DNA of 64,000 nucleotides, filler included, from Streblomastix strix (taxonomy: Eukaryota): NCBI GenBank assembly GCA_008636045.1. It is 4 parts of 4 records of this genome, joined end to end, with 100 filler letters (N's around TTAATTAATTAA, not from the genome) between each part and the next. Parts side by side here need not be neighbours in the genome. Positions count along the whole stretch, not along the records: positions 32,082 to 48,003 come from SNRW01000906.1; 3 more parts are not named here. The stretch is one strand, 5' to 3'. The translations under genes and the position numbers were made by a program. Numbering within the stretch: the stretch's first letter is position 1; each line of letters begins with the position of its first letter. The notes under the pieces were generated by a model that ran no database searches, was not told the DNA's origin, and worked only from the letters and a program-made list of their open reading frames with translations. Below are positions 5,689 through 48,103 of the stretch, one piece after another.

Positions 5689-10316
<4,628 letters not shown>

Positions 10317-15944: not shown

Positions 15945-16044
15945 NNNNNNNNNNNNNNNNNNNNNNNNNNNNNNNNNNNNNNNNNNNNTTAATTAATTAA
16001 NNNNNNNNNNNNNNNNNNNNNNNNNNNNNNNNNNNNNNNNNNNN
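15945..16044. other. Artificial contig linker
   Basis: N44-TTAATTAATTAA-N44. Confidence 0.98.
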
Positions 16045-20979: not shown

Positions 20980-21159
20980 GTATGAATTTATTTTTGCCTG
21001 TTAATTCTATGTGTTAGTCCTTCCTTTTAATGATTAGAGATAATAATAATATAAAACTTAATGGCAGGGTTCTATTTCCATTTTGTATTTTTTGTCTTTT
21101 AAGGTTATGCAAGTTAGTGTTAATATACTAGAATCATAGGTAATATTATATAAATCTCT

Positions 21160-21752
21160 ATATAAGACAAAAGACAAGACAAGACAAATCCATCAGAAGT
21201 TTGTGGAAATCATCTGCCATCTGCCATAATGCCATATCCTTCGATTTGAATCTAATTCTCCATAGCTAGTGAACATTCAACCTAAATTCTACCTAAATTG
21301 CACTGCCATACATTACCATTGAATATATTTATGGCAGACTTATCAAAGATCGACTTTCAGAATTGTCTTATCCTCATTTTCACAAATATATTGAAGGATT
21401 TTCGATAATCATAGAATCGTTCATTTTCAAAAATAGTTTCTATGTTCAATAGATATAAGACAAATTTGTTTCACTGATTTCAAGAGTCAAGCTATATTTA
21501 TAATTCTTATGGCAGACTATATATTGATTCATTCATTAATTATTCACTAGACCTTCAAATTCAAATTCAAATTGAAGGATATGGAATTATGGCATATGGC
21601 AGATGGCAGACAAAAATAGCTGGCGTTGATAGGATTTGTCTTGTCTTACATTTTGTCTTATAGATTAATTCATTCAATTCGTCCACAGCGCTTACACGCA
21701 CGTACTAACATGAGACAGAATTTTTGTCTTATCGTCAATTTGTCCGCCATAA
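21160..21752. repeat. Inverted repeat plus first copy of a ~165-bp repeated module
   Basis: 21160-21250 is an imperfect reverse complement of about 21566-21662. 21587-21752 is repeated directly at about 24682-24844, and more distantly at about 25120-25240. Confidence 0.8.
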
Positions 21753-24625: not shown

Positions 24626-27397
24626 TTTGCTTACGGATAAAAAGTTCAAATAGTTTGTTTAAACAATATTTTTTATTTAATTTATGGCATATGGCAATGG
24701 CAGATTAAATTCTCAGGAGTTAAAATTTTTATCTTGTCTTGTCTTTTGTCTTATAAGGATAATTATTCAATTCGTCCGCAGCGCTAGCACATATGCACTA
24801 ACATGAGACAGAAATTTTGTCTTATTGCCAATTTGTCTGCCATATTTATTGGTATGGTCATTGCATTCAATTTCTCCATAATTCTAATATTATTAACAAA
24901 TTCATTAATTAAAAGAATCAATTAAATTGCCACTGCCACTTGCCATCTACCTCTTTATATAGGAGTTTGGGTGTAAGCATGACAGCGTGACAGCGTGTCA
25001 GTTTATGGAATGGATTATTTATCTCAATTATACATCTCATTTACAAGTAAATATTAGTGTCACGTTACATCAAATATGTCAGTATGTCGATATATCACGC
25101 TTTTTTCGTCGGACTCATAAATTTTTGTCCCGTCCAGTCCTTTTGTCCTAATGGATAATTCACTTCATTTACCCACTCCGCTGGCACATTCATACATTAA
25201 TGGGACAAAATTTCTGTCCACACTTTCATTTGACTGACGAATTTCATTTACCGACCGACTGACCGACTTCTGCTCAAAGGGTTAATTTTAGGGGGGTCCA
25301 ACTCGGCATACTGGTACATATGATTAATTCAATCAATTTATCCACTATTTCAAACATAGTCATCAGAGTATTCAATAGACATAGTCAATTCATATCATCT
25401 ATCCACACAAATAATTAGTACAATCAATCTTCATAATTCACCTAATACAACTGTTGTAACACTCCCTTTTAACATCAAATTCATGATCAGCATATCAACA
25501 TTACCCTTAGGACTTATTCTCAAGTCAATTGGTAAACATTTATTTTTCCTTATATTTTTCACTTTTTATTAGAATATATATTAAAATAAAAATATTTTAT
25601 AGTAGGTTAGAATAACCATTAAAAACTTAAAATTTCATATCTCTCTGATATACTACTCTAAGGTCATATCACACACATAGATTCCAAAAATTATGTTAAT
25701 AATCAATTCTGTAACTGTTCAACACAGTCAATCTTAACAAATAATCCATTTCATTCATCGTATAACTAGTCGATACAATTATTTAATATTTTAGTGGACC
25801 TTGGATCATATATTATAATAATATATATGAATTATACAAATCCTCAAAAAAAGAGAAGTTGTGATTTTTTTATTTTTTTGTATAAAAATTAAAAAATTTT
25901 TTTTATAAATTTTATAAATATCTTTGCTACATATTAATTGATTTGATCAATTTAATATTTATTACGTACAATATATATGATGTAACTACAATATAAATAT
26001 AAATATAATAGATAGCTAATTTCTGTACATCAAAATTAAAAATATACAAAATTTTGATACAAAATTTTTAACGATTTTTTGATATTGGTTTGATTAATTC
26101 TATGTTATTATTTCTGTTGTGAAAATTATTTTATTTTATATTTATATTTGTATAATAGATATGTGTATGCATTATTACTAATATGCGTATTGAAACATTA
26201 AACAAAAAATTTTTATTCAAACAATTAGATCTGTTTCGATCAAAAAAAATACTACTAATTTTGAATCGGAGTTTATACTTAATTAGACTTTGTAATACAA
26301 CAAAAATGTAAGCAAAATAATTAATCAATTAATTTTGAGATAATATGAAATGGGCTGATTAATCGTATATTCATCTTTACAAATAAAATCAACAATCTAT
26401 CAACATATAAATGGATCAGGAGTTAAAATTTCTTTGATAGTTGAACTTCAGCGACTTGCTGACAATGTTAGTGTTTCGCATATAATATCCTGCTCATAAA
26501 ATGATTGCTGGAATGGATCTATTTAAGAAGTTATCCCCTCTTTCTTGAGCCGCATTTCTACTTCTGGAATAGTTGGTAATGAAGTACAATAAATATTTTT
26601 TAATTTATTATTTAATTAGAAGCTAACATTCTTGGACTCAAAATTTAAATTATAATAAAAATAATTAATTATTCACTTAAAAAATCTATTAATTCTGTCG
26701 AAATACCTATTATAAGTTGAGCTGAGATGGAGTTTTATGGAATGTACATATATGAATTATGATTATTATTGAATATCAATTGATTTTTGGAAAGAAGTTA
26801 AATAATTAATGTTTCCATTTAGCTTTGAGAATGAAATTTACATACAATGTTGATATATTGAATTTAAAAATACTGTATAAATCGATATCTTGAATTGCTG
26901 TTGAACACAAATTTTGTTATAAAAAAGTTTATGATTTTGTATCGATAAATTGAATTGAATAATGAATAAATATTGAATGCCCCGAGTGTCTCAACTAAAA
27001 GAGCAAAATTATCTTATTCTGAAAATTAAGAGACAATAAAACAATGAGACAATTAATAAAAAACATAAATAAAAATAAATTTAATCCAAATAAAAAATTT
27101 AAAATTTAAAGAATTTAACTTATTTTAAAAATAAACAAGTTAGTTTTAATAAAATTTAACACATAATGTATATTAATGATTTTATTAAATTTATATTTAA
27201 ATGCTAAGTGATAGAATTAGAGATGCAATAATAGATATATATAATTATATTTAATTTCCAATAATTAAAAATATTGGTTTTAAATCAGGATATGCAATTG
27301 ATATAGCAAAATTGTAAGGTTTAAAAATTATTCTTCATCGTCAGAAGATTTTTAGAAAAACAAAAAACTTTTAGAAAATAGAAAAATATATCATATA

Positions 27398-27932
27398 CAG
27401 GTGCGGGAAAAAGTGTCTGCACTCGACTTTTCTGGGCATATAATAAGAATTGTATGTTGTAATGTATATAAATATTATACATATAGTATAATGCAAAATG
27501 TCATTTTTTCTCAATCAAATTTGATCTATTTATAAAAAAGTTGTCAATTTAAATTTTTCACTTTTTTTACCATTTTGGCATTAAATGCTTAAAAATTATA
27601 ATATCCATATTTTCTTAAAATTAAGTTTTATTTTATATTATATATAATAATTATATTTAATATACAAATATATAATAAATAAATATCAAAAATTTAAAAT
27701 AAAATTTAATTTCAAAATAATATGGATACTTTAATTTTTAAGCACTTAAAGCCAAAATGGTAAAAAAAGTGAAAAATTTAAATTGAAAACTTTTTTATAA
27801 ATAGATCAAATTTGATTGAGAAAAAATGATATTTTGCATTATACTATATGTATAATATTTATATATATTACAACATACAATTCTTATTATATGCCCAGAA
27901 AAGTCGAGTGCAGACATTTTTTCCCGCACCTG
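27398..27932. mobile_element. Foldback MITE, Tc1/mariner-type (535 bp)
   Basis: Near-perfect inverted arms of about 210 bp beginning CAGGTGCGGGAAAAA, flanked by TA on both sides; non-coding. Confidence 0.88.
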
Positions 27933-28310
27933 TATATTAAATAAACAATAATTTTTTATTAATTTTGTAAATCAAAATTTTGAATATTGAATTAATAAGT
28001 CAATAAATTTGTGAATGAATAATTTATATGTATTATAATATTAATATATACGAAAAATATTAATTTCCTCAACTGTTTGATTATAAAAATACGTTACAAA
28101 AATAAATAATTAAATTTAATAAAATTTCTAAAAAGCTTCAAAAAAATATTAATAATATTAGCACATGACACATATATATGAAATAAGTTTAAAAAAATAA
28201 AATAATAACAGAATAATTGTCAATGCCGGAGTAATTAAATTTAGCTTCGGAAAGCTCTAATTGAATATTTCGATAAAAATTTATATCATAAAGTATTATA
28301 TAACCTAAAA

Positions 28311-29446: not shown

Positions 29447-31981
29447 TCATAAATAAATTGGGTAAAATGCTTGTGGAAGTGAGTGCTCTTCTCCATTCCA
29501 CACGAATTATGCATATAAAACATTACCAAAAAAATCTTTACCTTCTTCACCTCTACATGCCCTTACACAATCAGGCATAAAGTTCATTTCAAGTAGCACT
29601 GGTTAAATGTGGATGTTCAATTGGTTCGAATTTTGGATCTTAACAACAGTACGTTTAAGCATCACATCTATACCGTATGAAGCTGCACTCCAACCAACAG
29701 ATGCTATATGTGGTATAGTATTAGAATTATTGATAGAATCATGATCAGATGAAGTTGCAATTGTAAATATTTCTTTAAGCATATTATCAATTCTATGTTA
29801 TACATTCTTCCATGAATTGGATTACATAGCATCTTCATCATTAGGATAAGTGTTTCCATAATATTCTTATCTCTTTCTAAGTTCATTACTCAATAATATA
29901 TATCTCTGATTCTACATTTCATATAATTGAATAAATTAATTATCACTCATCTAAATCCATCTTCCTGTATTCTTATTATCATTAATATCCGTTTATCGAT
30001 AATTCATAACAGTAAAATGCTTTTCATATTCATCAAAAGTGTCCAAAGAAAATGGAATATTAGCTATACGTATCCAAAATCGTTTGTAGACTATTATGGC
30101 AAATCTTGGCGATTTTAATTAATTATTAGATCTTATTTCTTCATTAAATGTATTGTTTTATAATGGTTTTAAGATTACAATGAATCGTAAATCAAATTTA
30201 AAAAGAGGAGGATCAGTAAATATAGGTTTGATAATATGAATGAATTGATTTGTATAAGAATGAGATAAAGAAGAAGATTAAGTATCAGATGTAGAAGATT
30301 AAGAAACAACAAAATCTGGAACAGAAATGAGAAATGGAGTATCAATATATCTTTATATTATTCTAGGAATAGAAGCTTCTCCAATTGATAACTAAAAATG
30401 ATTGGATGTTGTATGTGGAAATGGAGTTACAGGTCCTATAAACATTCCCATTGATCTTGCTTAATTCCAAGGTTTACTTATAAATAGTTATAATTATGTT
30501 GTAGATTATCCAATCTCAGAAATCCATTTATTAAATTCTTAAAGACGATCATTCTCACATTTACCTTCTCCAAGGTTGAATGATGGAATAAACCAAGATA
30601 ATGAAAGAGAATTATAATATTTTTGCTATTCATCATTTTAGGATCTCTATATTTATCTTTCCATTGCTGTTCTAACCATTCGTGATAATAAATGTTTATA
30701 TACAAGGCATTCTTCTCCAGGAATTTGATTAATATACGTAAATTAAGATTCTTTAATTTATTTTTCGTTCTAATTATCATTTTTATGGTTTATTTAAAGT
30801 AATTATTTAATTCTTTTAATTTCTTCTTCTCTTTCAGAATCTTTTAAACCAATTTCCCATAATTTATCTGAATTTCCAATTTTTTCACCAATTTCTGGGA
30901 AGTGACTCAAAAATGATCTTATATCCTCAGTTATCCAAATAATATCTGCTTTAAATGGATCATCAATGGTCTCAAATTAAGCTAATGAAGTTGATAGATG
31001 AGTTGATACAAGATTGGAATCAGTATATACGAAATATTTCTTTTGTTAATATTCTAAAGATTTAATTTATTACTAATTATTTAGTTATTTTATAGATATA
31101 TTTTCTTCTAAATCATTATATCTATTTGGAAAATATTCATTAATAGCTTTTCTTTATTATTAGTTTTGATTTATATAATGCTAAAGACCCATTAACATTT
31201 CTTCAAGTCTTTCTCTATATTTATTTATTCTTTAATTATCATTAATTGCAACTGATGCAATATTCTCAAAATAATCTCTCGTCAAAGGTTCTCCAGGATA
31301 AATATCTCTAATTGGCCAACAAATAATTACAAATTATCCATTTTCTTTAATTTCTTTAATTTCTTTAATTTCTTTCTTTTCATTATAATTAATTTATTCA
31401 TTTCTTTAATCATAGAATATTCTATATTTAATATTTGGCAAATAAGAATTATGACATATTCTACTTCCAAGTTCATCAGGAAGAAACCAAATATATTCTG
31501 TTTTTAAATTATTATAAGTATTATCTTATTTTAATTCATCATTAATATCTTAAGGAGATACAATACTAATTACTTATGCAATTCTCCAAAATTCTTCTGC
31601 TGCTCGTTAAATTCTCTCTTCTTCTTCTCTAATTTAAATAAATGGATCTTTTATAAGATGTGGAACTTTGAGTTAAGAAGAGGATGATTAGGATGAAAAA
31701 GAAGATTATTATATTATTTGACTTTGATGAATATTTAGTTAATAGAACTCAGAATGAGGTGAAATTCCATTAAATTGTTGTAAATGAGGAAATATTATTG
31801 AAATAAAACTTCGGAATTCTTCAACTGGATTTTTGATTTGTTCATTTGAATTTAAAGAAGAAGATGAAGCAGAATAATTATTTGATTAATTGTAGATGGA
31901 CGAAATAAATTATTAATAAGGAGATTATACTGAAAACACGTCTTTATATAAATCTTCCCAATCAATTCTTTATAAAGAGTA
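29447..31981 (-). CDS. TTLL12: Tubulin-tyrosine ligase-like protein, TTLL12-like (5' end cut by contig end)
   Basis: KPWNQARS, IIQRYIDTP, FKFDLRFIV, YGIDVML and PVLLEMNFMPDCVRAC. Confidence 0.8.
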
Positions 31982-32081
31982 NNNNNNNNNNNNNNNNNNN
32001 NNNNNNNNNNNNNNNNNNNNNNNNNTTAATTAATTAANNNNNNNNNNNNNNNNNNNNNNNNNNNNNNNNNNNNNNNNNNNN
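31982..32081. other. Artificial contig linker
   Basis: N44-TTAATTAATTAA-N44. Confidence 0.98.
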
Positions 32082-32795
32082 AAATATTTTGAATAATGTA
32101 TAATTAAATTATTTTTGTAATTTAGATTGATATATGAAGCCTATACAAGAAAAATAGTGGCACACGATTTTTTTGTAACCCAACAAGTAATATTAATTCA
32201 TAATATGAGTTTTCAACAAATTTGCACTTATTTATTAAAAAAAACATATTTTTTAAATTCAGATATAACAGCACGCTTGTGCTAACTGTTTTTCCTGCAT
32301 ACCTCCACAACAAAGTAACATAATACTTTCATTTATTAATATTCATACGTAAATAAATGAATAATTTACAAATTATTATTAAAAACTAAATATAATATTA
32401 GTATAGTATGAAGAAGTTTGTGGTAACTTCAAAACCATATTAATCCATATCAATTCGCCCGCGCCAAATGACTCGGTGTGACAAATTGATTTTTTTAATA
32501 TGATTTTAAACTTACCACAATCAATCTTCATATAAATATGATATAAACATATTGTAAAGCATTAATCCATAGCACCAATCCATATAATTAATCCTACGTG
32601 CAGATTCTAAGCGTTAATCTTAAAAATTAATCCAGCGATAAACCCATATGATTAATTATATGATTTGTCATATATATGAACATACGAAATTGTTCTGGCG
32701 CTTGTTACTAATTTATAATTAAAAAATATAAAGTATTAACCAATAAAATTGGTCTTTCTAATAAATTGTGTGGAGCCTATTAAAAATAATCAAAA

Positions 32796-33955
32796 TCATT
32801 TTTTATTAAGATAAGCCTCAGCTATACGTATAGAGTCTCGTGTATGATCAAGCAAAGCATATAGATGTTGTACTTATTTTTACTTTAGTTCTATATCAAA
32901 ATCTACAATTTCTTTAGTCTTTTGTTTATATTCGTTTAATAGTTATACTTCTTGTTGTTTAAGAAAATCATATTGTGTCTAATCCATTTTTAATATAGGA
33001 ACAAAAATATAATCAAAGATCGTTATTAACTTCATATTATAGATATCTAGACTCTTCAGCTTCTCTTGCAACTCTAGTATTATGTATCGTACATTAATTG
33101 TGACTAAGTTGTTTCATTTATTTAATATATTAATTTTTGTCACCGACTATTTTAATATTAGCTTTATAATCATTGATTTGATTATCTGTTAAGAATAAAC
33201 AATCACTTATCTCAACTGTATTATAATTATCATATGGAATATTACTTATCAATACTATTTCATCTTAATCATTTGTATATACTATTTTATAATCCATTTT
33301 ATACAGAGAACAAAAAATAATTGTTCAATATAAATCAAAATTAATATCTTTATCCTATTCATCATATTATGCAGATTCTTCTTAACATTAGTTTGTAGCT
33401 TTAACTTATTATGGCTCTTCTTTTTCAATAATCTATTTTGGTTACTTATATCGCTTAACTTTTTATATATATTTCTCTATTTGTTTAACAGCATCTTAAT
33501 GTTATTGTTTAATAAATGAATTTTTAGTTCGCAACCTGATTAGTTCTTCTAAATCAAGTTGAGCATTAGCATAATTAATTTATGGAGTTTTAGATGTTTT
33601 TACTACTCTTTTTCTAACTTGTTTCTTTAACGGTTTTTCCCTTACTTCGCTTATTGATGTTTCATCGCTTTCATTTTAATCTTCCTATTGTTAATTTGAT
33701 ATATATAATCTTCTTCTTCATCTTCAATTTATTTTTAAGGTTACTTTTATACTTTTTTCTTTGATTCTAACCCGCCTCCACGAGCTAATAGCAATAACAT
33801 ATTCTATTATGTTTATGTTAATTTTCTATGAGTCTTCTTTCCTTCTTCGAAGACCTTTATATCTTTATTAATTTAGATTACATATCCATTGTCAAAGTAT
33901 TCAATATTTGTTCCATTCTCTTTCAAATTCTTCAATGCATGTTGTAAGTCCATTT
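32796..33955 (-). CDS. Three small hypothetical viral ORFs (two frameshifted)
   Basis: Code-6 frames starting MDLQHALK (about 33955), MDYKIVY (about 33297) and MDQTQYDF (about 32987), separated by TTATTTTT-like motifs. Confidence 0.45.
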
Positions 33956-33976
33956 GAATATTTTTAAATAAAGAAA

Positions 33977-34699
33977 ATGATAAAGGACATAGAAAGAAAC
34001 TAAATTCGAATGTCAAAAACTAAAAAATAAATGTCAGAGATTAAACATAAAGAACTGACGGATGAGGATAAAATAAGATTGCAATTGATCGATGATGCAA
34101 TTAGTCGCATTAAGACAATGCCTACAGTAGACGAAACTGTCAAACCAAAAGAAAATCCAACTTAAACTGAGAATGAAACTATTCAAGTAACTCCTGAATA
34201 ATTGATCCTTACAGAATAAAAAATTACTAAATATAAGAGTAAATATAATAAAGATAAACATAAACAAGTAGATAGAACAACTGAATAAGTTGAACCGGAT
34301 GAAGTTGTTAAAAATACATATCTTTCACACCCTAATTTGTAGGTAATGAAATTCACCATTGACCAATTATGGAAGACGGTAACAAAAAGAAATAGAGGTG
34401 ACGATTTCATATTCTCATCAGATAATTTTATTAAACTTTGGTCATTAATCACATAAGAAAATGAAGAAGATATAGAAACTGTATTAGAAGAGCAATTAAT
34501 GAGATCTCATTCATGCATAGGTAAATCATATAAAAAGAAAGATCTAATAAGAATGATGGATATATTGATTAAAAATGTATCAGTTAAAGTATTAGATAAT
34601 GTGCTATATAACTCTATTGAGAAATTGTACGGTGTGAATTGTGACTTTGTTCGTTTATCTGATGCACCTGAGATAGAAATTACAGATAACGATTTTTGA
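33977..34699 (+). CDS. Hypothetical viral protein (frameshifted)
   Basis: Coding-like code-6 frames ending ...APEIEITDNDF. Confidence 0.45.
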
Positions 34700-34751
34700 A
34701 ATAATTTAACCGTCTATTTTATACAATTAATTATTTTTATCGACAACAAAA

Positions 34752-35165
34752 ATGCTTTCAAAATCAGAAATAGTCAAAGGTAAATTGCTTGTTCATCCTC
34801 AAAATATACCTAAGGAAATTTACGTTGAACCTATATATTAATGTGGTGATGATTTCTATTAATGAACATTAAATAAAAATAATAAGCCTTACTACAAGTT
34901 ACTAAAACGATACGGTACTAATCAAAATTATCCGTAACAAATTTATGTATTAATTGAGAAGAGAAATAATGAACATATTGATGATACAATTAAATAGTAT
35001 GACTAACAGATGAAAGTCTTACGTGACAATATGGATATAGGTATAAAATATCGAGAGTTAAAAGAAGCGGTTGAATAAATGTAAGCTCAAACAAAATATA
35101 ATTAATACAATTAATATGGAGTTAAATGTACGGTTAATAGTATAGATTATTATGTTGAAAAATGA
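34752..35165 (+). CDS. Hypothetical viral protein (internal TGA at 34863)
   Basis: MLSKSEIVKGKLLVHP...YYVEK, 138 codons. Confidence 0.5.
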
Positions 35166-35188
35166 TTACTGATTATTTTATATTAAAA

Positions 35189-36232
35189 ATGGATCAAAAT
35201 TTAAGTGATTTAGATTTGATTGATGAAGATGACCAGATTAATTAATATGAATAGGTTAGTAAAATAATATAGTAATAAGAGGGGTAATAAAAATAAATTA
35301 AAGAACGTAATTCATTACTACAAGTTATTGATAATGAGATTATTAAGTATTTTAATTATTTGAGTTAGTTCTTTAGGAATTCTATCGATTTTGTTAATTT
35401 GCATACTGACTAGATTATTCGTGGGGTTAAGACATTTCTATAACCTATCATAGTTGGTAAAATTATTAAATAAGGTGGAACAAGTAACTAATTATTACAA
35501 GCTAATGGTGACACAACTGATGTGGGTAATTTCTTGCCTAAATACTATCCTCATGCTATGATGTAAATGATAATAGAACCTATTGATGACATATGTAATT
35601 AAGGTATTAGGATAATGAAAAATAAAGCGAACTGGGATAGCTTTGTTCTCACTGGTTGTGATGCTGATCCATCAAATAGAGATGGTGTATGAAAGATGGG
35701 ATCAACTTCATCATAATTCAGGATTCAAAAATAAGTGGATGAAGCTTATGATTATAAGGGATTGATTATAGATTTTGATTGTACAACTCTTAAGTTCAAT
35801 AACCAATTAGTAGCACCATTACCATCCCCTCCAATTGATTATGCTATTTAATAGTCATTAGGTTTTGGCGTATTTGATTTCTTTACATGGGGATAGGTAA
35901 CCTTATAGAATAATCGTGTATATATTTCTATAGCAGTTACTCACTCTGACCCTAATACGTATTGGAATACAGGTTATACTATATTTTCTGTTATGAATGA
36001 CGCTGCTAAACCTAAGTTCAGTGGATCACCTCGTAATTTACCTCTTAATGCTGTTATATATGCGACAAAGTAATCTAGTAATCCAGTTACATGGATTAAT
36101 CCCGTTGCTATTGATTGTTACGTTGATGTAGATGGTCATATTAAGATTAATGCTATATGTTAGTTTTATTTACTTGATGATTTTTTAGTATAAATTTGCG
36201 ATTCATATGCTATTAATAATTAGACTTCTTGA
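35189..36232 (+). CDS. Fibre-like virion protein 1 (internal TGA at 35690)
   Basis: QIIRGVKTF and IIKQGGTSNQLLQANG resemble phage tail-fibre motifs. Shares a QGIRI..W..GLxI..TLxFN module with fibre 2. Confidence 0.6.
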
Positions 36233-36278
36233 ATAACAACAAAATTGTTGGCATAAATGCTAATTTAAAAATAAACAA

Positions 36279-36404
36279 ATGAATCCAATTAACGAAACAA
36301 TAATCTATTCCCTCGAATAATTAAACATTAACTGGCATGAAATCTTTAAAGCTATTTGGGAAGCAGCTATCAAATATGCTTGCGAATCAAAAATTTGCCA
36401 TTGA
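36279..36404 (+). CDS. Conserved viral micro-protein (41 aa)
   Basis: MNPINETIIYSLEQLNINWHEIFKAIWEAAIKYACESKICH; homologue at 18603-18767. Confidence 0.7.
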
Positions 36405-36425
36405 AAAATAAATTTATTTTTACGA

Positions 36426-38417
36426 TCATTGTGGTTTAATAGCCCCACCAGCAAGCTCGCCAATTAATTCGATATTTAATACTTAGGGCATTGATCTATC
36501 ATCAAATATTATTCTAACAAACGCATCACATAAGTAATGCATCATTGGTGTAATAGATGCTTTAGTTGGATCGGGATAAGCTCGAGTTCCAATGAATTAT
36601 TTGAAATCATTTTAGTTCTAAGCTGGAAATATGTTAGTTGTATCAATAATTCCTTTAATTAAATTTCCTTACAAAATAACCTATATATTAGTTCTAGAAC
36701 CTATCTTTGAAGAGTTAAATCCTCGCATAAATGAGTCATCAGTAGCCAATTTCCATGCAAGCATATATTTGTTAGGGTAAAGTGTTTTAATAGCTTTACT
36801 CCCACTATACAATGTTGTTAAATAGAATATGTTTTCTGTTGCAAGTGGATCATCATCTATCACTCCATAGAAATTATGCTAATCATTAATGGATCTATTC
36901 TCAAATGTAAGTGAATGATATAGATCTGATGGAGCACTAACTACATCTTAATCAACGAAGCAGTCAAACATTTATCCATTAGTTGCTTATTTTAATGATT
37001 TATATGGTTATGGGATAACATTATTCTAATCAATTATTAGATTAAGCCCTGTGAATAATACTGAGAAACACCATGTAGGATATTAAGGCATAGCATATGT
37101 CATAAATAGTGACTTTATGTTAGAGAATGACATAAAACTTTACAAATATCCACTATCTTTACCAAATCCACTAAATGGAAAGTTCGAAGATTATGTTCTA
37201 AATACTTATGTAGGAAAATTAATTATTTTTTGTGTCTGAATCAGACTAATTATAGCTTCTTCATTTTCAATATTGAAGCATACGTTCTAGATCTCCAATA
37301 CATCAAATTTAGCCGTCCCAATCTAACTAATTGAATTTTATGGAGTCTTATCACCAGCAGCTACATTTTACATATTTACAATTCTTACATTATATCTTTA
37401 ATACGTTAGAGCATCAGCAGCATTTCCTGATAATAGATAAACAATATCTGGTTTCTCCGGAGGAATCATATGATAAGCTAAATGATTATTTTATATAGTA
37501 TCATTTTTGTTAAGCCAAACAACCTTCAAATCTTGTAGGAAATCTTATATCCATAATTATAGATGTAATGATGCATAATTACGTGTAAGAACAGGAAATG
37601 AGTTAATTATAGGATTTAGTTAGTTAAGATCAAGCACTCCACTAAATGTAATATCGTTAGGAATTTTGTAATAGAATAGTGTAGCAGTAGGTGACTCCTG
37701 TGTTCCAGCTGTTGCGTATCTATCAATTTCACTAAGTGGGACATCAATAAATACTCCAAAATGACGTTTTCCTTCTATTATACTTTCTAAAGGTGATACG
37801 TTAACGCTATTTTTAGTACACAAATCACTAAGAGAATTATCACTAATCACAGCTTATTCCCTTGCATAAATAGCTGATCCCCATTGTGCTGTTGCATCTT
37901 TCAGTAGTTAGAATTAGTAGAATGGTCCACAGGCAGTAGAGAAACCAATCCAAAATTATAGACGTTCAGATTTTTCAATTCCATCTGCTGATTTACTATA
38001 ATATCCTTATGCTGTTTATGACATATTATCAGTCCAATTAGCTAATGGATCTTTTTTACCATTAAAGTTAGTTCGTGCGATTAATTTAGCTATAGAATCA
38101 TAATCTTCATATGTTTTATTTAATTATATTGCTAATGTATTTGCTTGTATAGTAATTGTCCAATTTACTTAACAAGTTTATACCATCGAACAAGTAGATT
38201 TACCTCGTGCTCCTAATGGTGCTCTAGTATATTTAACTCCACTAGATGTAAGTTCAGTAATAGGAGAATCGAAGAAATTTTGCTTAAATATTTCAAATGA
38301 CTGAGGATGGATAGATATAGTTTTTATAACCTCCCCAAGTTACATATATCCGCTAACGTAATTTGAATGTTGCATTTTTGCTAATCGTCCAAGATAATCA
38401 CTAGATTTGAATGGCAT
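36426..38417 (-). CDS. Probable double jelly-roll major capsid protein (663 aa)
   Basis: Long beta-strand-rich code-6 ORF in a pPolB/ATPase element. The C-terminal FMRGFNS...HYLCDAFVRIIF is reminiscent of PLV capsids. The call rests on context and composition, not a database match. Confidence 0.6.
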
Positions 38418-38483
38418 TTCATTGAAACAAAAATTAATGAAACGGAATGGATGTTTAAGTTAATAGTTTTTATAATAAATCAA

Positions 38484-38690
38484 ATGGGTTTCTTCTCTAG
38501 AATTGCAAATTTTGGATCAAAAATATTATGTGGTGTTAAGAAAGCTGCATAATGGGTTGCACCAGCTTTAAATAAAGTTTTGTCAACAATATCAGGTCCA
38601 GTTGGAATGATTCATCCGGGAATTGGAGGTGCATTAGGTGCAGGGGCTAATCTAGCAGGTACGGTGGATCGTCTTGTGAATCATAAATGA
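38484..38690 (+). CDS. Small amphipathic Gly-rich protein (68 aa), putative membrane-penetration or cement protein
   Basis: MGFFSRIANFGSKILCGVKKAAQWVAPALNKVLSTISGP...; divergent from the capsid gene. Confidence 0.6.
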
Positions 38691-38786
38691 TTCATCCCAG
38701 CATAGCTGAGTTAATAAACGGTGATGACATCGTAATTTATACTCTTTGAGTCTAAGAATCTTCGATTATTATTTTTGAATAAAATT

Positions 38787-40718
38787 ATGAGTGCATCATT
38801 AACCCAACAATAAATCCGTACGGTTAGATTACTTATCGCTAACGATATAGCTTATTATATATATTATTAGAAACGAGGTAGTTCAAGTGGTGGAATGATG
38901 TCAAATGAAGAGTATTAATTATTCATAGATAATAACAATGCATTAGTCTATGCAGCTAACAATTAAATCGTTGATGGAATGGCATCAGATTACGCATTAA
39001 AAATAGAGCCAAATGGACTATTAACTATAAAGAATTTGAAGGTGATTAATTTTGATTTTGTTGCTTTGATTAATTAGTTGATTAATTAAGTGAATTTACT
39101 ATAGCAATCAATTGGGACAACTGAATAAGATATCACTGATACAAAAAATGATATTGATACAATTAATCAAGAACTATCTCGATAAACACATTTCAGAGGA
39201 TATTATTTATTGAATACAGATATATAAAATTTGCCCGATTCAGCTATTGGTGATTTTGCTTTTAGTGCAGAGAGTGGAGCAGTATGGATGTATGATTAAA
39301 ATTGGTATAATAGTGGAGATATAGTACCAGATTAAATTACACCAGCTAGTGATGCAAATCCACAACCTGATGGTACAGTAACTGCAGGAATTAGTTCTGA
39401 GTACTCACGCGGGGATCATGTCCATCCATTAAATATTACAACAACTATACCGATTAGTGATTCTGTTAGTGGATCAGTTGGTACAACTAACTATTATGCT
39501 AGAAACAATCATTCGTATCCAATTAACGTTGAGACTAATGCTTCGAATATCCCTATAGTTAATGGTGTTGGTGCTAATGGAACAGCAGCCTTTTACGCTA
39601 GACAAGATCATGTTCATCTATAGCAATTAACATATGATGGAAATGTTACTACAACTAAATTTATTAACGCAGGTGGCACATCTAATGATATATTGTTAGC
39701 TGATGGAACAACTAGATAATCATCACTTGCAGGTAGATAATATCAAGTAATCTATCCATAATAATATGTAAAATTATGTACATTTATAGCTTTAAATACA
39801 TCTACTGATAATTCTATTAAATTCAAAATAAATACAAGAGCAGGCTTCGGATAGATATAGTTTAATTAATATTGGTCTAGTGGAGTAGGAATTAGTCGGT
39901 ATTAGTATCTATTTATTCCAACATTAGCCACAGGCATTAATAGTGCATGGATTTTATACTTTAATGATGTTATTGATAGATATGGTGAATTATGGTGTAA
40001 AATTGATGAATATACTTACAATTCATATATATACGAAGCAAAGGTAAGTGCTTTCTAAGGAAATATTACTGATATATTTACGACTGATGGATAGGAAGAA
40101 TTACCTGATGATTATAGTGTCATTTAATAGTTATTCCCTAATTAATATAGTACAACTATGTAAATTAACCCCATAATTAATGTTACATTTAATGAAGGTA
40201 TTAGAATAAGCAGAACCCCTACGAATTTATGGAGCAATATACTGTTCGATTGCGATCCTAATTCTATTGTTGGATATATTGATAATTAATGGCTAATTGG
40301 CTCAACAGGTAATAATACAACTAATCCTCTTGGATTTATTATCGTTAAAGCAGGATAAGAGGGATCGAGTAGTGGATTATAAATTAATTAATATGGTAAT
40401 GAATTAAATTTCTATGGTAAAGTGAACTCAGGTAATATATAAATTAACCCCACAGCTGATGGAAACGATGATGGTTTGAGAATATCAAGAGCTGATCCAA
40501 TAAGTACAGGTAATTTATCAATTTAGTTAGGATGTAGTAGAACATCTACCGTTGGAGCTATTGATGGTTAATGGTCAATATTTACTCCACCAAGTAGTTC
40601 TACAAATAACCCTCAAAGTTTTGTAATAGCTGTATCATCTTAAGCAGGTGATAATACCAGAGGATTATAAATCAGCGCTGATGGAAATACATTAACTTTC
40701 AATGGACGGGTTCTTTGA
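38787..40718 (+). CDS. Fibre-like virion protein 2 (643 aa)
   Basis: N-terminal coiled coil, three (S/A)RxDHxHP-type repeats, FINAGGTSNDILLADG, and two C-terminal QINP..GxRISR repeats. Confidence 0.7.
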
Positions 40719-40740
40719 TGTAAATTTATTTTTGAAATAA

Positions 40741-41217
40741 ATGGAAAAAGCTGTAACCTAACCAATCAAACAATTATTCAATGAATTAGTTAAATAGCAC
40801 TTTAATGATATCGATACAATTAAAGTTACAATTGAAGCATTATAAAATTTGTTAAAGAATGATGTAAAAGAATCAATCCACCTATTACTCTAAGAATTAA
40901 TGAGAATCAATAAAATGTTCACTAATCAATGGCAATAATTATAAAATATAAAGAAAATGGTAGATGAAGAAGATTATAAAAATAAGTTGTTTAATGAATA
41001 GGATAAATACTTCAAAAATAAATATCTATTAATTAAAAAGTCATTAGATCTAAACAATTAACCATAACAAATAAAGAAGTACATTATCTCTGAAGCTAGT
41101 GAAGAAGAGAAATAGATTTACAATTAATTTGTGAGTGATGTGTAATATAGTAACTTTGTCAATAACTATCAACTTAATTTAAAATAATAAGATTGTTAAT
41201 ATATTAGATATATTTGA
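40741..41217 (+). CDS. Hypothetical helical protein (158 aa)
   Basis: Open code-6 frame MEKAVTQPIKQ...YIRYI. Confidence 0.5.
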
Positions 41218-41801
41218 TTATCTCTTCAATTTAATCTTGGATTTGTTCAATAAAAGTGTAATGTTATTTGAATTATTCATACAATTATTTTTCCTATTAA
41301 TCTAAATCATTTGTCTCTATTAGCGCTTCAAATATTTTAAAAATCTCATAGTCTGTTGCATTATACAATTCACCAACACTTCTAGCTGTTTAATAAAGTT
41401 ATTCCATTTCATTTAATTCAAACAATTTATTTAGTAGGTTAATTTAACATTTTATGATACATTTTATATCTTCAATGAGTTGCTAATTCAAAATCTTTAT
41501 TAGCTATTACTTCGTTCAGAAATGTTTCGATTTATTCTACAGATAGCTATGACCAATGGATGCGTGGTTAATTTTTGTCCATTTTTCTTTTGTAAAAGAA
41601 TTATATAATGTAAATCGTTATATTTAGTGGAACTAATACGATATCAAAATAACTCCATGATACTTTTACTACATTAACTGTGTCCATTAATTTATCAGGA
41701 ATTGATACTGATATGATTGATGTTACAAAATTAACTCCATAGAATATGTAATTCATTATCCCCATGATCAAACTAAGTATGTTCATTTTATTATTTTGAA
41801 A

Positions 41802-42817
41802 ATGTCGCTACTAGAATTGTAAGATATCACATTTACTAATCAAGTCTTATTGAACGAGTATAAAACTACGCCATTAACCAAAAATTCACTGTTTCTTATT
41901 AATGGAAATCATTATATTGTTGGTGCTGTTGGAAGTGACAAAGCAACATTAGAGTGTAAGTTAATTGCGATCTATAAAAAAGTAATTGATCCATTCATAT
42001 TATACATCTCGAATTTTGGAGCAGATGAGACAATGGCACTAAACCTAAATAGTAAGAACATATAACTAACGAATGTGATGTATGGCGAAGCACAGATTTT
42101 TCTACCCGAATTTGATGAGATAAAATATTCCACTAAAGAGATGTATACATGGTACAAGATGAATGAGTAAAAATAGTCTTACACTAGTGATTTCATTAAA
42201 CGAATGGAAGAGTAGATTTTATAAAATAATGAGATTAAAAAAAATGAAAAACCTAATGATTATCTTAATAGAATTGCTGTACTTTTCAAATAAAAGGTAA
42301 TCGAGACAATTAATACATACAGCTAGCCAACCAAGATATTGAGATTCGATATACCAGCGCTAATTTAAAATGTTAGTTATTAAAACAATTCAAAATAGTT
42401 GATGAAGAATAAGTTGATGTAAAAATAATGAAAATACCTATATTGGAAAAAGCTTAATTATTCAATACTTTAATGCTATTCGATGACATTGGTTCTAATG
42501 CTGATATATAAAGATTCAGTTCATAATTATCTAAAACAATAACCCATCTGGTTAGTGATTCGAGACATAGTAAAAATACTATTTTTTTTATAGCTTAACG
42601 TCCAACTTATTTGTTCAAGACAGCAAGGATATGAACCCATGTGATTTGCTTGGGAGTTAATTTAGGTGAGTCTGACCTAAGATAAGTGTATGAGGAAAAT
42701 ACTATATAAAATTTAGATTTTGATGAGCTTCGGTTACTATACAGTACACTAAAAAAATATGAGTTTATCATATTAAACAAATGGAATAGTTAATTCTAAA
42801 TTTTAAATAATAAATGA
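41802..42817 (+). pseudogene. A32-like FtsK/HerA genome-packaging ATPase, decayed
   Basis: YIVGAVGSDKA (damaged Walker A), LMLFDD (Walker B) and SRHSKNTIFFIAQ (arginine finger/Q motif). There is a frameshift between the Walker motifs and a TGA at 42632. Confidence 0.8.
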
Positions 42818-42839
42818 TTATTTTTATCTATACAAAAAT

Positions 42840-43418
42840 ATGGCAGAAGAAAATAATGAAGTGAATTAATGGATACAACTAATTGCGGACGCCGACTATG
42901 AAATACTTACAAATGAACCACATACTATTAGAAGAATTTCAAATGGATATATACTAACAATATCTATAAATAATGGTTATCAATCAATTAAATTAAATGG
43001 AAAAACATATTTACAACATAGAGTTTTAGCTATTTAATTCTTACCAAACCCTAATAATTTACCTGATATAGATCATAAAGACCGGAACAAATTAAATAAT
43101 GATTTAACTAATCTGAGATGGTGTTCAACTTCAGAAAATATTAAAAATAAATCAAGCTACGGGAATATAACATTTAATTATATTGACTAATTATCCGACG
43201 AAGCTATTACGGTTAATTAATATGGTTAATATCTGTTTGAATTTCTATATTTTGATAATAATAACTTCTATTTCTATAATGGATTACAATATCGATAATT
43301 ACATATCAATGAGAAGAAAAGTACAGGTTCATTATTTATTTATGCTTATAATATTGATAACATATAATATAAAATTTTTATAAATAAATTTAAAAGATTA
43401 TATGATATAGAATTTTGA
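42840..43418 (+). CDS. HNH homing endonuclease (HNH_3-like), 192 aa
   Basis: HRVLAIQFLPNPNNLPDIDHKDRNKLNNDLTNLRW; frame intact. Confidence 0.88.
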
Positions 43419-43435
43419 AAAATAATTATTTTTGA

Positions 43436-46400
43436 TCAATTATCTTAAAATGAGTAATCCTTAGCAGTTAATGTAAATATTTATGGGCAACAACTCTAAT
43501 CAGAAAGTACGACAGCTTTTGTATGAATTCCGGTGATCTCATTTTTTTCTATAGATAATTAACTCATCTGATGATTCTTCTAGCCCAATCTCATATTAGT
43601 GCATTTAGTTATCTTCCCTTCTTCAATACAATCGACTATCTAGTCTTTAATAATTTTGTTAGTTTTCTAATTGACTCCTTTCAATTTAATTTTTGAATTA
43701 GAGCAATAGTTAGTTTCTATCATGTAATTTTTAAGAGCTAGCGCATACATAGCGGTTCCTTGTCGTTCGATTGCTAATCCGAGGATTTTCTTCTCATCAT
43801 AAACGTCTGACTTAATTGTAGGAAAGAAGTATTTAGCATTATCGTTATAAAAATCTCGATCGTTAATTACAACATTAAATTACTAAGTAAAATCTTCATT
43901 AAAATTACCACTAACTGCCCAATAAGCCGAATCAGTATCTCCTTCAATAAAATTGATTCGATTAATATCTAGACACTTGTACATGAAGTTATATATGAAA
44001 TTTAAATATCAATATTTAGCATTATCCAATACAAAGAAAGCTACCTATAAAGGCGTTTTACAACTACATTGCTATGGATTCATTTATACAATATAGCTGT
44101 CCTCAGATATCTGTTGTTCGTCAATGAATGCATTTGATTTTACAGCTCTTTCTGTTTACTTTCTATTCATTATTTTAACTGTATGATATTTTTCTGTATT
44201 CATTCCATCACTCCCATAAGAGCTGTTCATAATTATCTTAAAGAATTATTCTTATCCATTATTCTCGTCTAATTTTGCTTCAATTCTATTTTTAGTAAAT
44301 TTCTTAATAAATGAGTTGAATTAATCATGTTTATTAAACAGCACTATCTATCTCACATTATCAATTATAAAATGACAATCGTCAATTAAAGACGATAGAT
44401 AATATGAGCTAAAAGTCATATACTCTCCCATTGTTGATGTAAGATTAGTTAGCTTTCTTTATTTTTGGTCAGTCTTAATCTTATTATCTTTCATATGATT
44501 ATACATATAACTGCCGATAGTTCTATCATCAGTTGTAAATTCATAATTTCTTAGGATAGGTGGAAAGTTAATATAATCGTTCAAGTAATTCTCCTAAATA
44601 TGTCCTTTAACTTCTGCAACGAATAATTAGCCATCAGCTATAAATCTTTTTTTGCTACTAATTATTCGAAGTATAGTTTATTTTGAATGATCATTATCTC
44701 TCATAACCTAACCGATTTATGATCCACACATACACATTTTTCCATTAGTATACTTAATAAATTTATGCGGCTCTGATGACATAACGCTAGGATGTAAGGA
44801 ATTAAAATCTACACCAACTACATAGATTATTCGATGATCAGTTGTAAGAGCAGTAACCTTTTTATATATTTTATCATACTATAACCGTTTAATAAAATCA
44901 ATTCCTGCTCTATTAACTCGATGCACTACATTTGAAAACCCACCTGTTATACCGGATCTGATTAAATGATATACATCTATATCTGTAAGATTAGTTGGTA
45001 AACAATGAATCATACAATATTTTCGTAATTATATGAATAATTTACCTATATTTTTGTCTTTGTTAGAGCAGAAGCAATTGCAATATAAACAGCAAGGCTA
45101 AACATTATCTTTCGAATGACCCTTTGAATTATCGATTCGGTCTAATGTAGGCTTATTATTTACAGTGAAATTACACCCACAAATGCTGCAGTTAGAATCT
45201 TTGAATAATTGTTTGAAATAACCGAAATCGCTATCTTAAACGTTATTTATTGTATCTCTTCTTTAATGATTATCTTACGATAGATATCCTTTCACATTAC
45301 TCTACCAATATTGCTCTATTAAGTAAAATTTCTATGACTAATCTTCAAAATTAGGATATACACCATTAATATCAAAATCATCATATGCTTTAGCGTATTT
45401 GATAGCATTAGAGCATGCTGCCATACTCATAAAACTAAACATATCAATCTTATATTTAAATTGTAAGCTAATGAGAGTCATTAAAGGCTTGATCATTATA
45501 TAAGTATCTTATTCGTTGTAAAATTATATGTAATCCCATCTATTTTTAAATCGTTTTGCGTCTTCTAGATAAATCTAATAATCCTTCTAGCTAATTTTAG
45601 TCTTCTTTAATGATGAGTTGAAATCCTTCATCGTAAACGGTTCTGATTTGCTTAGTACTTCATTAACGTTATCGGTGCTGAAAGCTTCATAAGGAAATAA
45701 GCCTTTTTTATCATCATATCCATCACCAAAATCCTTAGCCGCTTATTTTAGTTCCATAGGTTAAAGATATGTTAACATGTCAACAAACTTCACCTTCAAA
45801 TTCATTTTCTTATGATGTGCAATTACTTGTTTTGCTTATGTTGGACTACCAATATAATTACTAATTGTCCAATCTTTACATTACATCTATTATATAATTA
45901 ATGATATATCAAATCTTGAGCTATTGAATCCTACAATTGGCACTTCCATTTAATAAAGTATTGTTTCATCAATCGTACAGGCTTCTGTTATATACTAGTT
46001 GTCAGCATTAACCTATTCAGCTTCTATAAACAATTAATTTAACCACTAGACTATAAAATCATCTCCATCTTACTAGCTAAAGAAGATTTTCTTAATACCT
46101 TATTTGTTACGAATAGTTGATGCAACTGATAAAGGAAATAGCTCGTACATTTAATAGCTTGATTTACTGAACTTTTTATTAACGATTTTAGGTACTGTTT
46201 CAAGATCGTAAATGATGAAATATTGTGTGGGTTTAAACTCATGCTATCTTCCATTTGCCAATAGATACTGATAAGTTTTGTTCTGCATAATGTGTGGGAC
46301 AAACGGTTTTTATATATAATCCATTTTAACTTTCTTAACTATTTTTCCTTCGTTATTTTCACATTTAATAATGTGTTTCTCATAGTCTCTAGAGTAATTT

Positions 46401-48003
46401 TTATCTTTAGGATCGAATGCTTTTGAATTACAATGTGGACAAAATTTCAGTCCAGTTAGTACTTGTTTATTAGCTATAGCCAAAGCATGTGATATCTTTT
46501 TCCCTTCCCATTCAGATTCAACAACTAATATATCAATTGTTTTGATGTCTTCATTTTCATTTTCACATTAATACATAACTTATAATCCTCTATAATAATT
46601 CTTATGTTCGTTATCGTAGTAATAAATGTCTTAGTTAATTTTTAACTTTTATGATACTATGTTAACGTATTTAGTTATATCTAGTCCTTCAAATGTCTTC
46701 AGTAAATCAGTCATTTTTCTATTCTTTGAATCGAATGGTAGATCTAATACTTAAACTAATAGTTGCTTGCTAATTCTAATAATTTCATCAGGATAATAAC
46801 GTTTCTCTTTTGTGTCCGGATGTAATTCTTTAGCAACTGCTTCCATATAACAGTTGTTATTATTTCCAGTATTTTTATATAGTACATTTTTGCGACCATT
46901 ACAATGAAAATCGATTAACTCTTTCACACTTGCTCCGACAATTTACGGTTAAAGATTATATGTTTTGATTAGCATGGAGTATATAGCTATGTAACGTTAC
47001 CTCGTACTATCTAATGTATAATTCTACATGTTTATTATCTCAGATTTAATGTATTATTAATACTCACTAATATTTTCTTCAAATTATATAACTTTTCGAG
47101 CATGTTCTTATATTCGTGTATCTCTAGATAATATATATTCATAATCAACAAAAACTTAATCATTCTAATCAGATTTAAATTCTTCGTAAATGACTCCAAA
47201 AATGAGTTGAATCTTGAAAGCCATATGGTGCTATTCTTCATAAACTTAATCAACAAACTCTTCGATATCGGATAATGATTAGATAACATTATTATAGTGT
47301 AACTCGCTAAGTTATCCATTATCTTCTGTTTTTTCTATTGTACATTCACGAGCAAATCCTTATTTCGCTTCATAAATGGTAGCAATAAATTGTTCCATAT
47401 TCTCAGGTAGATAATATAATAGAGTGCCTGCATCATTATCGAGTTCTCTAACTTTATATCCATTAAACTAATTAATCCTATCATTAATCTCTTTATTTTA
47501 TTTGAGAGTTATTAAATATTGTAGATTCGCTTCTTATTCTTCTTCCATAATTCGTTAGGCTAATTCTTGTTCTCTGATAATTAAATCAGTCAAATAATCA
47601 TTAGCATATTGTTATTCTTATTCTCTACGATATTCTTATAAATCTTATTCATATTAATTTGAATTGTAATGTGATAATTCTTAATGCAATTATCGATTCT
47701 ATTCTTATAAATCATCATAGTAAATATCAGCTTACTGTTACAATTATTCCCTACGATATTACTATAAATCTTAATCATATTGATTCTATTTGAAATGACT
47801 AATCATATCTTTTGCTTTAACGATTTACGTGTTGTATTAATGAATCTATTTTAGATGTGACTTCAAATTATTGTAGTTATGACTTCCTCGTTTCTTATTA
47901 TTAATTCTGTCTAGATAATCATGGAGTTAATTATTAAGTTATTTAAGTTTTAATGATTCACGTATAGTGTTATTATTACTTTGGAGTAGTTGAATTAGCT
48001 CCG
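43436..48003 (-). CDS. Protein-primed family B DNA polymerase polyprotein (5' cut by contig end; internal TGA)
   Basis: ExoI YDLET, ExoII GFNSSRFD, ExoIII YNEQD, and polymerase motifs DFNSLHPS, KIIMNSSYG and EGDTDS. In-frame TGA at 44009-44011. Confidence 0.92.
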
Positions 48004-48103
48004 NNNNNNNNNNNNNNNNNNNNNNNNNNNNNNNNNNNNNNNNNNNNTTAATTAATTAANNNNNNNNNNNNNNNNNNNNNNNNNNNNNNNNNNNNNNNNN
48101 NNN
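48004..48103. other. Artificial contig linker
   Basis: N44-TTAATTAATTAA-N44. Confidence 0.98.

Follow-up and report, generated by a model that had tools for sequence, protein, structure and literature searches.

Small endogenous DNA viruses resembling Polintons are known from protists that read TAA and TAG as glutamine (code 6), among them Tetrahymena and the oxymonad Streblomastix strix. Tlr1 of Tetrahymena thermophila, as presented in PMC5499653, is a capsid-encoding Polinton-like element integrated in a protist, with an rve integrase and a superfamily 1 (SF1) helicase instead of the protein-primed DNA polymerase B (pPolB) found in the S. strix element which is the subject of this work. Elements of S. 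strix were reported by Bellas et al. (2023, PMC10120064), whose text describes use of the host code table, a single capsid cluster (MMPC_40, with Trichomonas as its seed) holding 820 S. strix genes, a representative S. strix capsid of 562 aa and a genome that the authors estimate to be about 11% viral. In its accessible part, a 2026 preprint by Bellas and Sommaruga (10.64898/2026.06.19.733378) leaves the Metamonada (MMN) elements of S. strix and parabasalids ungrouped and calls for more genomes of related organisms, and the accessible text of bioRxiv 10.1101/2024.03.23.586382 treats parabasalid polintons only; metamonad Polinton-like viruses are still unplaced outliers. Here we analysed a 64-kb stretch of the S. 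strix assembly GCA_008636045.1 ("the window"), in which positions 32082-48003 come from contig SNRW01000906.1. This contig is very probably what remains, after decay, of a small Polinton-like virus that was likely integrated in the host and is written in the host's TAA/TAG=Gln code. Its capsid is predicted to have the double jelly-roll fold and probably represents a family not yet catalogued. A first-pass annotation of the same DNA had proposed a divergent endogenous Polinton-like virus long adapted to a code-6 protist. Novelty of this kind of element is not supported: S. strix viruses that are endogenous and use the code of their host were published in 2023 (PMC10120064), and Tlr1 is an older ciliate case. 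As the element type is already known, it constitutes no discovery by itself and the value of the locus lies in its capsid family.

The window consists of contigs joined by N spacers at 15945-16044, 31982-32081 and 48004-48103, and the element was therefore taken to be the whole contig at 32082-48003 (15,922 bp), which viral genes fill end to end. With translation table 11 the longest stop-free frame of this contig has 107 codons, whereas table 6 opens frames of 1330, 696 and 675 codons, which confirms that the genes are closed in the standard code, as first proposed. In 300 dinucleotide-matched simulations the maximum frame was 565 codons and frames of at least 660 codons were reached in 0 of 300. 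The pPolB, ATPase, capsid and HNH nuclease genes, the repeat-rich genes and the small open reading frames (ORFs) of the cluster originally described are all where they had been placed, but the cluster is not intact, given the TGA codons and a frameshift in the ATPase gene; this decay had been missed by the first-pass annotation. The capsid gene (36426-38417, minus strand) is an open frame in which 35 TAA or TAG codons are read as glutamine; it needs no intron, because the identical protein, residue for residue, is present in NCBI on a contig of 15,922 bp.

The product of this gene, a protein of 663 aa, is by structural modelling a predicted double jelly-roll major capsid protein. The AlphaFold2 model built from 150 alignment rows has a predicted local distance difference test score (pLDDT) of 88.1 and a predicted template modelling score (pTM) of 0.89, and supersedes an earlier, poor model made from 51 S. 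strix rows only (pLDDT 52, 0 PDB matches). When it was compared with the PDB using Foldseek, the Sputnik major capsid protein came first (E 8e-11) among 198 matches at E<=0.001, the leaders being the capsids of Sputnik, iridovirus, EhV-201, mavirus and PBCV-1, while in BFVD the leading matches were virophage, ascovirus, adomavirus and adintovirus capsids. VIA-align superposed 345 residues on PBCV-1 chain 8h2i_bu (Z 19.9, root-mean-square deviation 3.8), and its 16 top-ranking rows all belong to double jelly-roll viruses, being either capsid or scaffold proteins. The double jelly-roll that the first-pass annotation had expected is supported by the model and these comparisons. Such a capsid is a hallmark of Polinton-like viruses in the broad sense (Polisuviricotina), alongside an A32/FtsK-HerA packaging ATPase and a minor capsid (penton) protein. 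Because sequence identity in the structural alignments amounts to only 5-10%, these results establish the fold but do not place the family. Virophage capsids (Sputnik, mavirus and the rumen virophages, as treated in the part of PMC9952930 available to us) are among the leading Foldseek matches, but they are 8-10% identical to the window capsid and capsids of nucleocytoplasmic large DNA viruses (NCLDV) score equally or higher; a metagenomic relative of the capsid has a feature score of 0.95 against NCLDV-type capsid clusters. Virophages also require a protease, namely a cysteine protease, according to the same source (PMC9952930), whereas no protease ORF was recognised in the window element. 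At the sequence level, the Pfam scan of the capsid gave 0 matches, 17 members of its alignment gave only weak Pfam matches, none to a capsid family, and a profile search of the PDB gave 0 matches at E<=10.

Homologues within the host are abundant. The capsid search returned 180 matches, and all 120 that were listed are from S. strix (43-90% identity; 24 of at least 620 aa and 68 shorter than 550 aa), in agreement with the code-6 protist host proposed earlier. Several of the close homologues bear the UniRef annotation 'Major capsid protein', as would be expected if the contig were merely one of the 820 MMPC_40 capsid genes of Bellas et al. and held nothing new. Genome, code and element type are indeed the same, the MMPC_40 elements likewise being many diverged endogenous copies whose capsid is seen by structural modelling only. 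Moreover, the first jelly-roll and the published representative have a loose pattern in common when judged by eye, which makes a distant kinship with MMPC_40 capsids likely. The sizes point the other way: the S. strix representative has 562 aa and the Metamonada-group capsids have 528-586 aa in the rows of Table S3 with full lengths, versus about 650 aa in the window family. Three short motifs of the representative occur in 0 of the 523 proteins collected here, and in the rows examined the published S. strix capsids show 31-33% identity to those of Tritrichomonas (PMC10120064). No parabasalid or Entamoeba name appears among the matches listed (150 of 213 in the profile search). None of six locus tags of the family is present in the part of the supplement examined, a weak sign since that file lacks the S. 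strix match list. On this evidence we regard membership in MMPC_40 as unlikely, although it is a serious contender. The original claim of a capsid unlike known ones probably stands at the family level, but the separation from MMPC_40 depends on indirect checks. In the published literature, most subscription papers lying outside the search, we found no description of a capsid family of about 650 aa, and we consider it fairly probable that this is another family, so far missing from the catalogues, whose metagenomic relatives are numerous. Should it be separate from MMPC_40, existing counts would underestimate how much of the S. strix genome is viral.

Outside S. strix, the nearest relatives listed are metagenomic proteins of 21-28% identity. 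A capsid profile search over 1.84 billion representatives gave 213 matches, of which the best 150 were listed; ten long distant matches, from Logan, ENA, JGI or NCBI, were examined and all are unnamed or 'hypothetical'. A second search starting from distant relatives found 159 proteins, and the 120 listed are from ENA or Logan and 53-83% identical to one relative. None of their contigs exceeds 26 kb, and about 35 (counted by eye) measure 17-26 kb. All four scans of IMG/VR viral contigs returned 0 relatives. The family thus supplies at least 180 database matches (all 120 listed being from S. strix) together with many relatives that probably use the standard code. Scanning JGI, we retained two loci out of 90 pattern matches, L001 and L002, on contigs of 23.0 and 21.8 kb, for which 4.6 kb and 7.4 kb, respectively, lay outside the DNA examined. 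L001 has capsid, ATPase and small peptide in common with the window and a D5-like primase-helicase in addition, and no pPolB or integrase was found in the 18.4 of its 23 kb examined. According to the part of bioRxiv 10.64898/2026.10.13.758929 consulted, such viruses commonly exchange their replication modules. Together, these data lead us to favour slightly a broader interpretation: a second lineage of capsid-encoding DNA viruses in S. strix, apart from MMPC_40, would have switched its code within a large group, hitherto undescribed, of viruses of about 20-26 kb with more than 100 metagenomic capsid clusters. Across this group replication modules would be exchanged (pPolB in the window, the D5-like primase-helicase in L001), and a conserved amphipathic peptide would serve for membrane entry.

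The two loci also carry genes of their own. Long fibre-like proteins at 5704-9906 of L001 and 11651-14242 of L002 have a phage Gp10_C domain at their end (E 1e-11 and 2e-14) and are unrelated by sequence to the fibre-like genes of the window. A conserved gene of 273/290 aa, 30% identical between L001 (293-1114) and L002 (965-1837) and near the capsid gene in L002, is a penton candidate; it has 0 matches in Pfam, PHROG and Atlas and no counterpart in the window element.

The genetic code separates the two branches. The standard code applies in L001 and L002, where 11 of 16 long ORFs terminate in TAA or TAG. In the S. strix element, the TAA codons of the capsid gene at Q80, Q83, Q188 and Q426 align with columns in which 82-96% of 106-108 metagenomic rows have glutamine, versus 4.7% glutamine overall. 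TAA and TAG make up a fraction of 0.73-0.83 of the glutamine codons in eight element ORFs, compared with 0.78 and 0.80 in two host-like ORFs. As a decay of a few percent cannot convert 80% of glutamine codons, the recoding likely took place in functioning ancestors. A quick capsid tree of 44 rows (19 S. strix and 22 metagenomic proteins, both sets picked to be full-length and diverse, plus L001, L002 and the window) put the 20 S. strix capsids on one side of a branch of support 100 and length 2.99, with several subfamilies within. Similarly, a FastTree of 40 pPolB rows, in which 39 of 77 matches were used, put 13 S. strix pPolBs on one side of a branch of support 99. The codon fractions and the S. 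strix-only sides of both trees support the earlier proposal of a lineage long adapted to the code of its host. Such a pair of code-6 and standard-code branches would allow viral recoding after a host switch to be measured and, if the history is right, would be a clean natural case in which most glutamine codons were rewritten following a single jump into a code-6 host.

The gene for pPolB (43436-48001, minus strand), a strict Polinton/Maverick feature, is present, and its reading frame is continuous from the end of the contig down to 43436 save for one TGA at 44009-44011. The protein is 90% identical to another S. strix copy matching DNA_pol_B_2 (E 2e-8), and 39-41% identical over its full length to metagenomic proteins of 1358 and 1510 aa. 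Its layout comprises a putative terminal-protein region, a vOTU-like cysteine and histidine, a zinc finger, an exonuclease, an insert matching the endonuclease VII PHROG (E 1e-11) and the palm, and among 27 long relatives the conserved columns are the cysteine and histidine, the zinc finger, the exonuclease acids and motifs A to C. A vOTU domain has been described in Polinton pPolBs in the section of PMC11071308 consulted, and the two conserved residues fit this domain by their position in the sequence. Many metagenomic pPolBs of 1400-1580 aa have the same endonuclease-VII insert and lie on contigs of only 5-8 kb; some of these may be capsid-less linear elements, or mere fragments. In another S. 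strix subfamily, capsid and pPolB genes, with locus tags three apart, are both found on a contig of 8,049 bp.

The packaging ATPase gene (41802-42817, plus strand) matches the intact P-loop ATPase of L001 (388 aa, its gene sitting beside the L001 capsid gene) in two frames, with E values of 2e-12 and 1e-7. It is broken by a frameshift near 42390-42430 and a TGA at 42632-42634, and its library matches are weak and generic AAA only; from its motifs we presume it to be A32/FtsK-like. Downstream, the identity of the HNH endonuclease (42840-43418 from its likely start, the ORF beginning at 42690, plus strand) is certain (Pfam HNH_3, E 2.2e-8; PHROG 59, E 8e-22).

Such gene content recalls Polintons/Mavericks (Polintoviricetes), which have in common with the element a pPolB with vOTU-like, exonuclease, nuclease-insert and palm regions, a double jelly-roll capsid, an ATPase and a size range of 15-25 kb. 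One may thus ask whether this is a classical Polinton with pPolB, rve integrase, protease and terminal inverted repeats (TIRs) whose ends were left unassembled. The Polinton-type layout of the polymerase, with vOTU-like residues and nuclease insert, speaks for it, as does an rve-like integrase adjoining a piece of related pPolB in another element of the neighbouring contig. Strict Polintons, however, need both pPolB and an rve integrase in the definition given by the part of PMC5499653 consulted, and neither Pfam nor PHROG matched an rve integrase on the contig, which may not hold the whole element. No TIR was detected within 32082-48003, where the ends of the element abut assembly breaks, and protease and minor capsid were likewise not found on the contig, although it offers 15.9 kb of sequence. 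The capsid, in addition, matches no library model in sequence, whether a Pfam or a PDB capsid, and the replication genes of L001 described above differ from those of a Polinton. A classical Polinton is therefore, in our opinion, a doubtful description of the locus.

Several observations indicate that the copy is broken, and as read from the assembly alone the pattern fits decay after integration. The pPolB TGA stands at a position which is tryptophan in 44 of 51 matched relatives, motif A has histidine where 26 of 27 relatives have tyrosine, and the Walker A motif of the ATPase (GAVGSDKA) has aspartate where L001 has glycine. In the capsid 20 of 274 conserved columns deviate, and in pPolB 16 of 140, the sister copy keeping the conserved residue at 6 of 14 comparable sites; the terminal branch of the window pPolB is 0.083 versus 0.021 in the sister. 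Three TGAs were observed in the scored genes, versus 3.6-6.4 expected at 2-3% neutral change. Reading through TGA as a feature of the code was rejected, as the TGAs are few, as many as neutral change would produce, and accompanied by a frameshift. Hypermutation by CpG methylation or of the repeat-induced point mutation (RIP) type received no support either: CpG observed/expected is 0.80 in the element and 0.55-0.85 elsewhere in the window.

Stops and frameshift might instead be artefacts that arose when many near-identical intact elements, or a free virus sequenced along with the host, were collapsed or wrongly assembled. That only viral genes lie on the contig and that its end is close to the start of pPolB would suit such an origin, as would a sister pPolB cluster of 26 members at 90% identity and, in the portion of Bellas et al. 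(2023, PMC10120064) consulted, the removal of such stops by read polishing in another protist. A mixture of viable alleles, on the other hand, would not yield private changes at near-invariant sites which the sister conserves (motif A Tyr to His, Trp1203 to Ser), the number of private changes agrees with the number of stops, and the nearest capsid clusters are just 77-90% identical. We find an assembly origin of the lesions quite improbable and retain a decayed copy, likely integrated in the host genome. Regarding integration, 4 of the 120 listed S. strix homologues lie on contigs longer than 30 kb (up to 41 kb), and the 120 listed metagenomic contigs reach 26 kb at most.

Some points weigh against the interpretation of the contig as a decayed, integrated Polinton-like virus of a host-specific lineage. 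The contig shows neither a host gene or junction nor a terminal repeat or target duplication, so that we infer integration of this copy rather than observe it, and Pfam, PHROG and ORF comparison revealed no integrase there, nor a maturation protease or minor capsid. In-frame stops in such elements may be assembly artefacts, as stated in the part of Bellas et al. (2023, PMC10120064) seen. Both trees are fast and either unrooted or midpoint-rooted; the window pPolB is atypical in composition, and a common enrichment in glutamine could draw the S. strix rows together. These rows are code-6 translations, which makes their agreement in glutamine partly circular. Finally, the roles of the fibres and of the entry peptide lack database support.

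From what is known of preplasmiviricots, the intact ancestor would have copied a linear genome with pPolB by protein priming, the capsid protein would have formed an icosahedral shell into which the ATPase pumped the DNA, and the fibre-like proteins and the amphipathic peptide would have mediated attachment and membrane entry. Derived from relatives with the standard code, the lineage is likely to have reached the oxymonad line a single time; about 80% of its glutamine codons would then have shifted to TAA/TAG under continuing selection, before it radiated into subfamilies inside the host. The window copy would later have accumulated an estimated 2-3% of neutral change and would be capable of neither autonomous replication nor packaging. 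The integrase absent from the contig may lie in unassembled sequence or may have been provided in trans.

Two repeat-rich genes look like fibres. Fibre-like protein 1 (38787-40718, plus strand; 643 aa from the second ATG, or 664 aa from 38724) has a probable coiled coil and three repeats of about 32 aa ending in [SA]RxDHxH-like motifs, followed by longer beta-rich repeats, and is a putative fibre. Fibre-like protein 2 (35162-36232, plus strand, as a read-through frame) is probably a single gene of about 357 codons split by a TGA at 35690-35692, the point where, by eye, the fibre-1 repeat has tryptophan. The two are weakly alike (pairwise BLAST E 0.001 and 0.003), and neither had a relevant match in Pfam, PHROG, PDB or GenBank phages, or any to the long beta-rich proteins of L001 and L002.

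Between the capsid gene and the fibre gene lies a gene for a glycine-rich peptide of 68 aa with an amphipathic N-terminal helix (38484-38690, plus strand). A 77-aa ORF of L001 matches the peptide with 49% identity over 41 aa (E 9e-8). Its hydrophobic moment was equalled in 4 of 1000 shuffles, against 0 and 1 of 1000 for two L001 peptides. L001 has two such genes, in tandem at 1197-1430 and 1456-1677, both small, with amphipathic N-terminal helices and homologous or similar to the window gene. The peptide is a candidate for membrane entry, and it may resemble adenovirus protein VI. Adintoviruses encode predicted membrane-active accessory proteins, according to the part of PMC8502044 consulted.

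Small ORFs occupy the remainder of the contig. In the left part (32796-35160) they are at 32796-33035, 33013-33297 and 33249-33953 on the minus strand and at 34010-34699 and 34752-35160 on the plus strand, the last one interrupted by a TGA at 34863-34865; those scanned matched no Pfam or PHROG family above the cut-off. In the right part (40681-41786) they are at 40681-41217 (plus), 41159-41407 (minus) and 41472-41786 (minus).

The neighbouring contig of the window contains a second element of 8.5 kb (16226/16499-25001). Inverted repeats of 44 nt (89%) flank this element, and tandem repeats of 13 nt lie on its left. Besides an A22-like resolvase (E 0.02) and an rve-like integrase (E 0.14), it encodes a D5-like primase-helicase whose gene is split. 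Of a related pPolB it holds the C-terminal third, with about 40% identity to relatives; no match to the 663-aa capsid family was found in the element. Nested inverted repeats at 21145-21678 and 24728-24844 (70 and 47 nt, 79%) and a direct repeat of 117 nt at 21635 and 24728 (81%) could be traces of a smaller mobile unit that encloses the primase-helicase. On the same contig, 29447-31198 is a probable host gene, which we take from its motifs to be tubulin-tyrosine-ligase-like. A long hairpin at 27387-27943, with arms of 266 nt that are 92% complementary and a loop of 25 nt, resembles a miniature inverted-repeat transposable element (MITE) or a foldback remnant. Finally, an 18-nt tandem array of about 29 copies at 8400-8900 of the window reads in code 6 as IYHNNS repeats.

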